IMG/VR virus record: IMGVR_UViG_2681813318_000003
Source: a virus
Taxonomy: Duplodnaviria; Heunggongvirae; Uroviricota; Caudoviricetes
Reading direction: 5' to 3' (one strand)
Length of the DNA stretch: 64,000 nucleotides
Under the pieces are notes generated by a model. The model did not search any database and was not told the origin of the DNA. It saw only the letters and a program-made list of their open reading frames with translations. The first letter of the stretch is position 1, and every line of letters starts with the position of its first letter. A program made the position numbers and the translations under genes. Of the stretch, positions 42,682 through 44,051 are shown piece after piece.

Positions 42682-44019
42682 GTGAGGTTGACGCACCAGA
42701 ACCGGCAAGACAGCTTTAAACTAGCTGAAATGGTATGGTCGATTAGGTATCATTCAGTTTCAAAATTAACCAAAGACACTGATAAAATGCCTGTTTTGTT
42801 AATCCTCATACTTGGGACAGTGATGATTATTTTCTGGGATACCGTCAAGGAAAACGTAGAGGTCATAGGTACACTTGCCACTTCACTTGCATTTTTCGCC
42901 ACAGCATGGGCCGCTTACGAGGCAAGGCATAGTGCAAAGGCAGCAATGAGGGCTACTAGGCTGACGGCAGCTTCACTCCTTGAAATGAAAAAAGCCTCTT
43001 TTAAGGAATGGTACGGCATATTACTTGAACAGCATAATAGATTACTTGAGGATGTTAACAAGACCTTGCAGGATGATAGGGAACTTAATGCAAAACTGGG
43101 AATGAATCTCATCAAGGCTATTTATTACCATGTAACCAAAAACTCCGTTTACATTAAATATATTAACCACATAGTTTTAATTCTTGATTATTTAGATAAA
43201 GACTTCTATTCGCCGTCATCAGCCGATTATGAAAAGAGAGCTTACATAGAACAGCTGCGCAACAGCATTAGTCCTAATGTAAGCCTGCTGATAGCTACAT
43301 TCGGCCTTAATATTGACACTAATAAAACCTATGACGCAAAGAGACTTTACAGTCTGCTAAGCAAGTATAACTTCTTCGAAGGCCAACTTTTTTTTGAAGA
43401 AGCAATATCGAAAGTTCATTATTTGGACTCTTATGCTGCTGTGATATTTGATAACGAATACCGAAAAGATGTAGAGTTTTATGTTGAAGAAATGGTTCGA
43501 GGTCGTGAGACCCCTAAAATCGATACAAGATACCGTCATTTAAGGGCTACGTTCGCAATTCTGTGGTCTTACAACAACCCCTGCCGACAACATTTGCTTC
43601 AAAGATTTAATGACCTACCTATGCATATGCGAAACAGCATTGAGCTGAGGATGGAAAATGCAGCCGATAAAGTAGCTGAGTTCAACTCTTTGTTACCTGG
43701 TTTTATAGGCTGGGAGCTTAGAATCGCAGGTAATAAAGTGAGGGTGATCAAGGATGAAAAACATTTAAAGAGGCTAATAAAACTCAACGATAAGTATCCT
43801 ATTTCCCCCCGAGAGAGAAGTATTCTGTTAACCAATGGTATCACCAATAGATTCGCTGATGAGATTAAAAATAGTCTGTCTATGTATAAGTTAGAAAATG
43901 CCTATTTAGCACTCAACTCTAATCAACACAAAGAAAAGGTGATTGATGAAATTGTTGTTGAAGTTGAGAAAATTGTCGATAAATTTAAAGCAGAACTTGA
44001 TTCTTTAGATTTCAACTAA
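42682..44019 (+). CDS. membrane-anchored protein of unknown function (AT-rich insert)
   Basis: 445-aa track ORF; likely start is ATG 42787 (MPVLLILILGTVMIIFW TM segment); lower GC than its neighbours; own terminator. Confidence 0.55.
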   Translation: MRLTHQNRQDSFKLAEMVWSIRYHSVSKLTKDTDKMPVLLILILGTVMIIFWDTVKENVEVIGTLATSLAFFATAWAAYEARHSAKAAMRATRLTAASLLEMKKASFKEWYGILLEQHNRLLEDVNKTLQDDRELNAKLGMNLIKAIYYHVTKNSVYIKYINHIVLILDYLDKDFYSPSSADYEKRAYIEQLRNSISPNVSLLIATFGLNIDTNKTYDAKRLYSLLSKYNFFEGQLFFEEAISKVHYLDSYAAVIFDNEYRKDVEFYVEEMVRGRETPKIDTRYRHLRATFAILWSYNNPCRQHLLQRFNDLPMHMRNSIELRMENAADKVAEFNSLLPGFIGWELRIAGNKVRVIKDEKHLKRLIKLNDKYPISPRERSILLTNGITNRFADEIKNSLSMYKLENAYLALNSNQHKEKVIDEIVVEVEKIVDKFKAELDSLDFN

Positions 44020-44026
44020 GCAAAAA

Positions 44027-44051
44027 GGGGCCGAAGCCCCTTTAATTATTT
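44027..44051 (+). terminator. rho-independent terminator GGGGC-CGAA-GCCCC plus T-run
   Basis: Directly after the 44019 stop. Confidence 0.75.

Follow-up and report, generated by a model that had tools for sequence, protein, structure and literature searches.

What does a single AT-rich gene, standing on the plus strand among neighbors that all lie on the minus strand, contribute to the element that carries it? The question is raised by positions 42,682 to 44,051 of a 64,000-nucleotide stretch of viral DNA (IMG/VR record IMGVR_UViG_2681813318_000003; the whole stretch is called the window here), where a preliminary description had seen an inserted gene for a membrane-anchored protein and had compared it to accessory genes for exclusion or abortive infection. 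A 5.5-kb region around the gene is 96 to 98% identical to Escherichia phages CMS-2020a and Cyrano, has more distant matches in Salmonella phage SSU5 and Klebsiella SSU5-like phages, and also matches several hundred nonmobilizable plasmids of ~100 to 115 kb from Escherichia, Klebsiella, Enterobacter, Salmonella, and other genera; we therefore assign the window to an SSU5/pHCM2-type phage-plasmid of E. coli, of which it forms a part. Our results lead to the reading, to which we give a probability of about 0.6, that the gene is single-gene, membrane-anchored anti-phage defense cargo of the AbiC/AbiP (putAbiC) type on this SSU5-like phage-plasmid. Homology to putAbiC and a patchy distribution, both set out below, support the earlier suggestion of accessory cargo of the exclusion or abortive-infection kind.

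The assignment to a family was reached through relatives and profiles. Direct searches against Pfam, PADLOC, NCBIfam, and the sequences of the PDB gave subthreshold noise or nothing, a 398-amino-acid (aa) form of the protein found no useful match in NCBIfam, and PHROG 18168, which matches the protein with an E value of 3e-175, has no assigned function. A set of 5.8 billion proteins contained 84 homologs, all from Enterobacterales, and the most distant of these carry the Pfam domain PF16872, putAbiC ("putative phage abortive infection protein"), a description that NCBI also gives to several relatives. When the 23 sequences of an alignment of the protein with 22 homologs (A1) were scanned one by one, 8 matched putAbiC at an E value of ≤1, and four relatives reached the gathering score of 22 bits (P0084, 31.2 bits; P0080, 24.1 bits; P0079, 22.7 bits; P0081, 22.0 bits); these four are 30 to 33% identical to the protein in A1, with search E values of 7e-16 to 3e-51. 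A profile made from A1 retrieved 140 proteins from 1.84 billion representatives, and among the 100 that were aligned, 82 match putAbiC at an E value of ≤0.01, while 11 match the PADLOC model for AbiC and 8 that for AbiP. Comparison by hhalign of A1 with A8, an alignment of 44 distant putAbiC-type relatives so retrieved, gave a probability of 99.8% (E, 2.4e-30) over 263 columns covering aa 23 to 293 and paired the motifs LLEQH(N), xxY, R-x-x-I, and (F/Y)(N/D)FFE. The protein keeps the superfamily positions F72, L79/80, Q82, H83, Y125, L133, Y153, R158, I161, A170, L191, F196, F197, and E198, among which Q82-H83, Y125, Y153, R158, and F196-F197-E198 are conserved residues of the putAbiC-homologous region. 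The remote-homology searches recommended earlier thus lead to putAbiC, and we classify the protein as a divergent member of that superfamily; the initial impression of a large domain without a recognizable motif holds for direct searches and fails for profile methods. The Abi_C/AbiJ HEPN RNases, which have an R-x(3-6)-H motif, were rejected as relatives, the resemblance being one of name only: Pfam shows neither Abi_C nor HEPN in the protein, and the "Abi_C" RNase of PMC13590631 belongs to that other family, AbiJ/HEPN.

Several points weigh against a defense function of this type. The mechanism of AbiC has been open since 1992, and the phenotypes of AbiC and AbiP differ. A direct Pfam scan of the 445-aa and 410-aa forms of the protein gave no putAbiC match even at an E value of ≤1, and at the same threshold neither the PADLOC model for AbiC (PDLC02343) nor that for AbiP (PDLC02351) matched the protein or its 22 relatives in A1. 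Membership in putAbiC is accordingly proposed by transitive and profile-level homology, and it is from family membership alone that an anti-phage function is suggested. Well-conserved superfamily positions are substituted (S123I, R127N, K134D, S159N, N172F, and H199G), and because several of the best-conserved polar residues are among those replaced, the biochemical activity may differ. The likeness to AbiC and AbiP of Lactococcus lactis was drawn through family models and published descriptions rather than through their sequences or structures, and a tblastn search of plasmids with the putAbiC consensus core reached no Lactococcus plasmid. A comparison of the structure model of the protein with PDB and BFVD structures found nothing specifically similar, and a search of the literature on putAbiC, PF16872, and AbiC in E. 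coli turned up no experiments with the enterobacterial clade. Finally, the gene diverges in step with the backbone in several genera, which would also fit a long-standing nondefense function in the phage-plasmid.

The gene itself is real and not a chance open reading frame (ORF), since it is intact in all 10 homologous loci examined and since the ratio of nonsynonymous to synonymous substitution rates (dN/dS) is 0.16 to 0.22 in comparisons with the Enterobacter, Klebsiella, Salmonella, and P2-like prophage copies, indicating purifying selection. As first described, it is a plus-strand gene in a minus-strand region (grxA, a 58-aa ORF, and four tRNA genes are all on the minus strand) and is lower in G+C than its surroundings: at 38.0% (38.4% at third codon positions), compared with 45.5% for the whole window, it is the lowest-G+C 1.2-kb stretch of the 64 kb (z = -2.9), and just 0.16% of sliding windows are equally low. 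The uninterrupted plus-strand ORF runs from 42682 to 44019, 445 codons from the GTG at 42682, but the length of 445 aa did not stand. An "MPxLL" start is conserved in 10 of 10 homologous loci, four of them (L003, L014, L008, and L009) have in-frame stops 4 to 15 codons upstream from it, and the 75 bp that precede the corresponding ATG at 42787 are conserved as DNA and not as protein. For these reasons we reject the GTG, place the start at ATG 42787, which gives 410 aa, and regard positions 42682 to 42786 as noncoding. RefSeq annotates close relatives (e.g., WP_021520125.1) from the position of ATG 42823, with 398 aa; the 12 codons omitted in this way encode most of membrane helix 1, and we judge this start less likely, as helix 1 shows both conservation and purifying selection (dN/dS of ≤0.14 for codons 1 to 45). 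The 398-aa entries are probably N-terminally truncated and lack the first membrane helix.

Upstream from the start codon lies an element with motifs that are invariant across 7 loci (Table 1), even though the proteins of the P2-like and lambdoid prophage copies among them are no more than 46 to 59% identical. It has no clear Shine-Dalgarno sequence within positions 42712 to 42786 and is a probable promoter with a 5' untranslated region (UTR) that travels with the gene. At the other end, a hairpin begins 4 nucleotides past the stop codon and folds with -15.0 kcal/mol on the plus strand (z = -2.3 relative to shuffled sequences) and -13.9 kcal/mol on the minus strand. The strong terminator reported earlier is therefore real as a hairpin, but its private ownership by the gene was rejected, as an identical hairpin is found in relatives in which the gene is absent or replaced by unrelated cargo; it looks like a bidirectional terminator common to the gene and the convergent tRNA cluster.

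The corrected N terminus contains two hydrophobic helices where one transmembrane helix had been described. Neither contains a charged residue, and 7 K/R residues lie within the 31 residues after helix 2; on the basis of this charge distribution (the positive-inside rule), a topology with both termini in the cytoplasm is predicted, with ~365 mostly helical cytoplasmic residues. Helix 1 stays hydrophobic in homologs down to ~30% identity. An AlphaFold2 (AF2) model (predicted local distance difference test score, 84; predicted template modeling score, 0.74) is mostly helical, with helices at residues 2 to 15, 17 to 22, and 24 to 96, the last being a 73-residue helix that leads out of the membrane, and with strands at 310 to 313, 346 to 349, and 354 to 356 in a small strand-containing region (aa 310 to 356). 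The model showed no significant structural similarity to alpha-helical pore-forming toxins (ClyA/HlyE). The C-terminal ~100 residues form a module of their own: their nonsynonymous rate (dN) is 0.17 to 0.51, compared with 0.10 to 0.21 for the core, so that amino acids change 1.7 to 3.2 times faster, with dN/dS at 0.18 to 0.32. We propose that this module may carry specificity or sensing. Within the family, the P0072 clade (L018 positions 7001 to 8191, on an IncFII plasmid contig) lacks helix 1 and has a one-helix, AbiP-like architecture; its gene in L018 is directly downstream of a ParE toxin gene.

The predicted topology bears on an alternative already named in the preliminary description, superinfection exclusion at the envelope, in which an inner-membrane protein would block genome entry, or a membrane receptor or translocon that incoming phages use, instead of acting after entry in the manner of an abortive-infection protein. 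A membrane-anchored, constitutive-looking protein carried as cargo by prophages and phage-plasmids, in the same "moron" positions as known exclusion genes, would suit such a role. However, more than 85% of the residues are predicted to lie in the cytoplasm, just a 9-residue loop faces the periplasm, and no exclusion family in Pfam or PADLOC matches the sequence; moreover, AbiC and AbiP act on capsid-protein production, DNA replication, and transcription (PMC13064643). We consider envelope exclusion distinctly unlikely.

Comparison of the flanks indicates that the gene occupies a variable slot. On the right, similarity to relatives without the gene resumes exactly at the hairpin, around position 44022, and we identify the hairpin as the fixed right-hand boundary of the slot; on the left, similarity ends at the start codon of grxA. 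In the 58-aa ORF between grxA and the gene, a few codons from the 3' end of a gp49-family gene are joined in frame to ~34 codons from the start of phoH. By BLASTP it is 85% identical over 34 aa to PhoH of an Enterobacter phage-plasmid, and DNA alignment shows the jump from the 3' end of gp49 to the 5' end of phoH inside the ORF. Relative to the Enterobacter and Klebsiella elements, gp49, a small ORF, and most of phoH (~1.3 kb) are gone, and a further 9 bp (3 codons), retained by pDETEC87 in this region, are absent from the window. We identify the 58-aa ORF as a deletion scar on the left side of the slot and reject it as a partner or antitoxin gene. The ancestral order was grxA-gp49-(hypothetical gene)-phoH followed by the AbiC-like gene. 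Phage-plasmids of Enterobacter, Klebsiella, and Salmonella have the arrangement grxA-(gp49)-(hypothetical gene)-phoH, a plus-strand homolog, the hairpin, and the tRNA genes, with phoH intact. Their homologs are 79% (Enterobacter), 74% (Klebsiella), and 69% (Salmonella) identical to the protein; as these syntenic copies have diverged to roughly the same extent as proteins of the flanking backbone (GrxA, 83, 79, and 73% in the same order; ORF71, 70, 66, and 59%; ORF96, 79% for Enterobacter and 72% for Salmonella, with no Klebsiella match), the gene is an old resident of the slot in some members of the group. We accordingly reject a recent arrival in this plasmid in favor of a long-standing variable slot with alleles that codiverge across genera: what had been called an insert is accessory cargo, but not a fresh insertion, since many distant relatives have it in the same gene order.

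In very close relatives (backbone identity of 95 to 99%; for the E. coli elements, flanking backbone proteins 92 to 100% identical to those of the window), the contents of the slot vary (Table 1, last rows), from the allele of the window through a deeply diverged allele and an unrelated gene to no plus-strand gene at all; the slot of Cyrano retains an intact gp49 gene and the hairpin. The last ~100 residues of the 420-aa allele of CP057127.1 cannot be aligned to the window protein, and neither this allele nor the 302-aa protein of pECOH89 has a Pfam match or a credible PADLOC match. A third deep allele, 38% identical, is found in Klebsiella. A family member is present on 139 plasmids (8 at ≥95% identity), and the backbone ligase on 798. 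At the DNA level (≥73% identity), 17 of 5,426 complete E. coli genomes match the gene, all 17 on plasmids of 108 to 116 kb, and a tblastn search with the protein against 50,697 phage records (including SSU5, Cyrano, and CMS-2020a) gave zero matches. The gene is therefore accessory and multiallelic, and its homologs are not syntenic in all relatives, some of which hold other alleles, unrelated cargo, or no gene in the slot.

This distribution also bears on whether the gene could belong to the core of the phage-plasmid, serving, for instance, lysis, replication, or morphogenesis. Synteny in SSU5-type elements of Escherichia, Enterobacter, Klebsiella, and Salmonella, with divergence like that of neighboring backbone genes, would be expected of such a gene. 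Yet the family is absent from ~80% of the plasmids with the backbone ligase and from every one of the phage records, SSU5, Cyrano, and CMS-2020a included; Cyrano has gp49 and the hairpin in the slot without a plus-strand gene, unrelated genes replace the family member in other relatives, and homologs occur in unrelated phage types and plasmids. A core function is thus largely refuted by distribution, and we regard it as very improbable.

Elsewhere, the homologs are single genes and, in prophages, lie on the strand opposite to their neighbors. P0045 belongs to a P2-like prophage, where it is encoded on the opposite strand between genes V (spike) and S (tail completion), that is, in the orf30 locus, one of the three recognized variable regions of P2-like phages (PMC3091744). 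A lambdoid prophage carries a homolog between its replication genes and the rusA-Q region, and a P2 remnant carries one beside a DUF4145 gene and ogr. On IncF plasmids, homologs lie beside ParE or amid insertion sequence (IS) elements and VapBC, and a chromosomal-island homolog has a GIY-YIG nuclease gene as its neighbor; in a related contig, an IS110 transposase gene adjoins. All copies have a G+C content of 30 to 38% in loci of 43 to 55%. A hairpin similar to that of the window follows the homologs in P2-like and lambdoid prophages, and because both the upstream element and such a hairpin accompany the prophage copies, the transferable unit appears to comprise promoter, gene, and hairpin. 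Across 14 loci in several element types, the neighbors differ and no small conserved partner gene was found.

These contexts bear on a further explanation, that of an accessory membrane protein with a nondefense role, whether in plasmid or prophage maintenance (as an addiction-type toxic membrane protein), in lysogenic conversion of envelope physiology, or in plasmid competition. The IncF copies beside ParE, VapBC, and Hok modules and IS elements are in keeping with it, as are the long-term residence in the slot across genera, the change of half of the conserved polar residues of the superfamily, and the lack of a reported phenotype for the clade. However, no small partner (antitoxin) gene was present in any context examined; the protein is homologous to a family named after and modeled on abortive-infection proteins; and many deeply divergent alleles with a fast-evolving C terminus are what an arms race would be expected to leave. 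A nondefense role of this kind is, in our judgment, unlikely.

If the gene is indeed AbiC/AbiP-type defense cargo, we speculate that it would act as follows. A lysogen would express it independently of the surrounding minus-strand phage operons. Upon infection by an unrelated phage, a phage product would trigger the cytoplasmic domain, the fast-evolving C-terminal ~100 aa setting which phages are recognized. Once activated, the protein, perhaps by way of its membrane anchor, would halt phage development at a stage past DNA entry, and the infected cell would yield little or no progeny, so that the host population and the resident phage-plasmid would be protected. The steps of expression, triggering, and postentry abortion are modeled on characterized relatives. 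AbiC lowers the production of major capsid protein without blocking DNA replication, whereas AbiP is a membrane-anchored protein that binds RNA in preference to single-stranded DNA, arrests phage DNA replication, and stops the early-to-late switch, with early transcripts remaining high (PMC13064643); AbiP is also toxic upon coexpression of the phage major tail protein (PMC12184496). With PdpSau, adsorption and entry are intact, the membrane is depolarized within ~10 minutes, and replication is stalled (PMC10127798).

How close the protein stands to these systems can be judged from their descriptions. AbiC has two transmembrane helices and an extramembrane domain and AbiP has one helix and a related domain, the two being grouped as "AbiC/P" in a 2026 review (PMC13064643). 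With AbiC (Prf of L. lactis; PF16872, PDLC02343), the window protein shares a single-gene organization, carriage on mobile elements, a predicted arrangement of two N-terminal helices followed by a helical extramembrane domain, membership in a sequence family at the profile level, and the LLEQH, Y, R, and FFE core motifs. It differs in that AbiC is encoded on a lactococcal plasmid while the present family is found on enterobacterial phage-plasmids, prophages, and IncF plasmids, in lying below detection by the Pfam and PADLOC models, in the six substituted superfamily residues (the near-invariant Asn of an "AIN" motif being Phe172 here), and in an extra, rapidly evolving C-terminal region of ~100 aa. 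Because direct hidden Markov model membership fails and several conserved residues are lost, we regard the protein as a divergent new member, or subfamily, of the known AbiC/AbiP family and not as a canonical AbiC. AbiP (Lactococcus; PDLC02351) is likewise the product of a single-gene system, is anchored in the membrane, and has an extramembrane domain that is related; 8 of the 100 profile-retrieved relatives match its model, and a one-helix P0072 clade exists. AbiP, however, has one membrane helix, demonstrated nucleic-acid binding, and a major tail protein as trigger (PMC13064643, PMC12184496), and the PADLOC search gave no direct match between it and the window protein.

PdpSau, from a Staphylococcus aureus prophage, has been reported to be structurally similar to AbiP and to shield the lysogen from lytic phages by abortive infection and membrane depolarization (PMC10127798). 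It shares with the window protein the position as cargo of a temperate element, a membrane anchor, and a cytoplasmic C-terminal domain; although it is smaller (278 aa), has one membrane helix, and comes from a Gram-positive host, it offers the best functional analogy for a defense gene of this kind borne by a temperate element, an analogy drawn here from its published description. Variable "moron" loci known from temperate phages (e.g., orf30, Z/fun, and tin/old of P2) resemble the locus in being AT rich, in having their own promoter-like element and hairpin, and in varying in presence between close relatives, with P0045 located exactly in the orf30 locus; they are, however, a positional class and not a protein family, and P2 gave no tblastn match to the protein. 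Taken further, these comparisons raise the tentative proposal, which we place slightly below even odds, of a distinct enterobacterial AbiC/AbiP subfamily missed by the tested defense models, with about half of the conserved polar residues exchanged and a modular, fast-evolving C-terminal sensor, in a long-lived multiallelic defense slot next to the tRNA genes of SSU5-type phage-plasmids, the gene being traded as well, along with its promoter-like element and hairpin, among P2-like and lambdoid prophages and IncF plasmids.

Table 1. Positions of the AbiC-like gene, its parts, and its neighbors in the window, with the contents of the same slot in related E. coli elements (last four rows, with positions in the loci named)
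Feature	Position	Strand	Remarks
Integrase	39710-40813	-	Leftmost of local gene order
YafO-toxin pair	41136-42091	-	Between integrase and grxA
grxA	42219-42467	-	Left neighbor region
58-aa ORF	42464-42640	-	Overlaps grxA start; between grxA and AbiC-like gene
Conserved upstream element	42712-42786	+	Probable promoter and 5' UTR; ~75 bp
-35-like CTGAAA	42725-42730	+	Promoter scan: CTGAAA-17-TATCAT
-10-like GGTATCAT	42746-42753	+	Invariant; alignment of 7 loci
AATTAAC	42764-42770	+	Invariant; alignment of 7 loci
Coding sequence of AbiC-like protein	42787-44019	+	410 aa and stop; corrected start ATG 42787
N-terminal membrane hairpin	42790-42918	+	Two hydrophobic helices and loop
Helix 1, aa 2-17	42790-42837	+	Hydropathy >2
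Short acidic loop, aa 18-26	Between helices	+	Net charge -2
Helix 2, aa 27-44	42865-42918	+	Runs on into long stalk helix
Wider putAbiC-homologous region, aa 23-293	42853-43665	+	hhalign, A1 versus A8
putAbiC core, aa 119-201	43141-43389	+	Pfam matches of P0081, P0079, P0080, P0084, and P0070 mapped through A1
C-terminal module, aa 311-410	43717-44016	+	Fast-evolving; short strands and helices mixed
G+C-rich hairpin AAAGGGGCCGAAGCCCCTTT	44024-44043	Both	A/T runs on both sides; terminator scan
Four tRNA genes	44199-44852	-	Right of hairpin
Small genes, then DNA ligase	46279-47601 (ligase)	-	Right of tRNA cluster
Slot of pDETEC87			Window allele, 99% identity
Slot of CP057127 (L003, CP057127.1)	1930-3192	+	420-aa allele, 31-38% identical, aligns over aa 1-311 only
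Slot of pECOH89 (L005, NC_023916.1)	1929-2837	+	Unrelated 302-aa gene
Slots of Cyrano and strain D4 plasmid A			Only gp49, no plus-strand gene

The neighborhood yielded further observations. Between integrase and grxA lies a second variable module, whose 138-aa toxin matches YafO (Pfam PF13957; E, 1.7e-20) and whose toxin gene is preceded and overlapped by a 182-aa ORF that has no family match and is possibly an unconventional antitoxin. The closest E. coli relatives (Cyrano, D4, pECOH89, and RHB36) lack this module. Other E. coli phage-plasmids have it with ~87% nucleotide identity, and the corresponding position in Enterobacter and Klebsiella elements is taken by YafO and partner proteins that are only ~30 to 36% identical to those of the window. 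The tRNA cluster differs from that of Cyrano in a 320-bp spacer (44286 to 44605) between tRNA-Ser and tRNA-Thr, where Cyrano has 8 bp, and in an extra tRNA-Tyr (44686 to 44772) between tRNA-Thr and tRNA-Asn; the spacer has no tRNA or Rfam match and holds two near-repeats of "tcttaccgttgtga(g/t)gaa". Other lowest-G+C stretches in the 1.2-kb sliding scan, at ~7000 to 8000, ~20500 to 22000, and ~48500 to 49500, could contain additional cargo genes gained by horizontal transfer.

Phage-plasmids of the SSU5 type occur commonly in clinical E. coli, Klebsiella, Salmonella Typhi, and Shigella. A recent DefenseFinder survey of these elements found comparatively few defense systems and did not list AbiC (10.1101/2025.09.12.675607). 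As PADLOC v2 does not detect the protein, a family present in ~1/6 of SSU5-type elements has probably been missed in defense inventories. If active, it would affect the host range of phage therapy in these pathogens, and it would provide an AbiC/AbiP-type protein in a genetically tractable host, E. coli, as a model for the mechanism of AbiC, for which the natural series of alleles differing mainly in the C-terminal module would help to map specificity. Should the proposal of a distinct subfamily be true, such cargo would make lineages of E. coli, Klebsiella, Enterobacter, and Salmonella resistant to lytic phages in an allele-specific way, through an abortive mechanism linked to the membrane.

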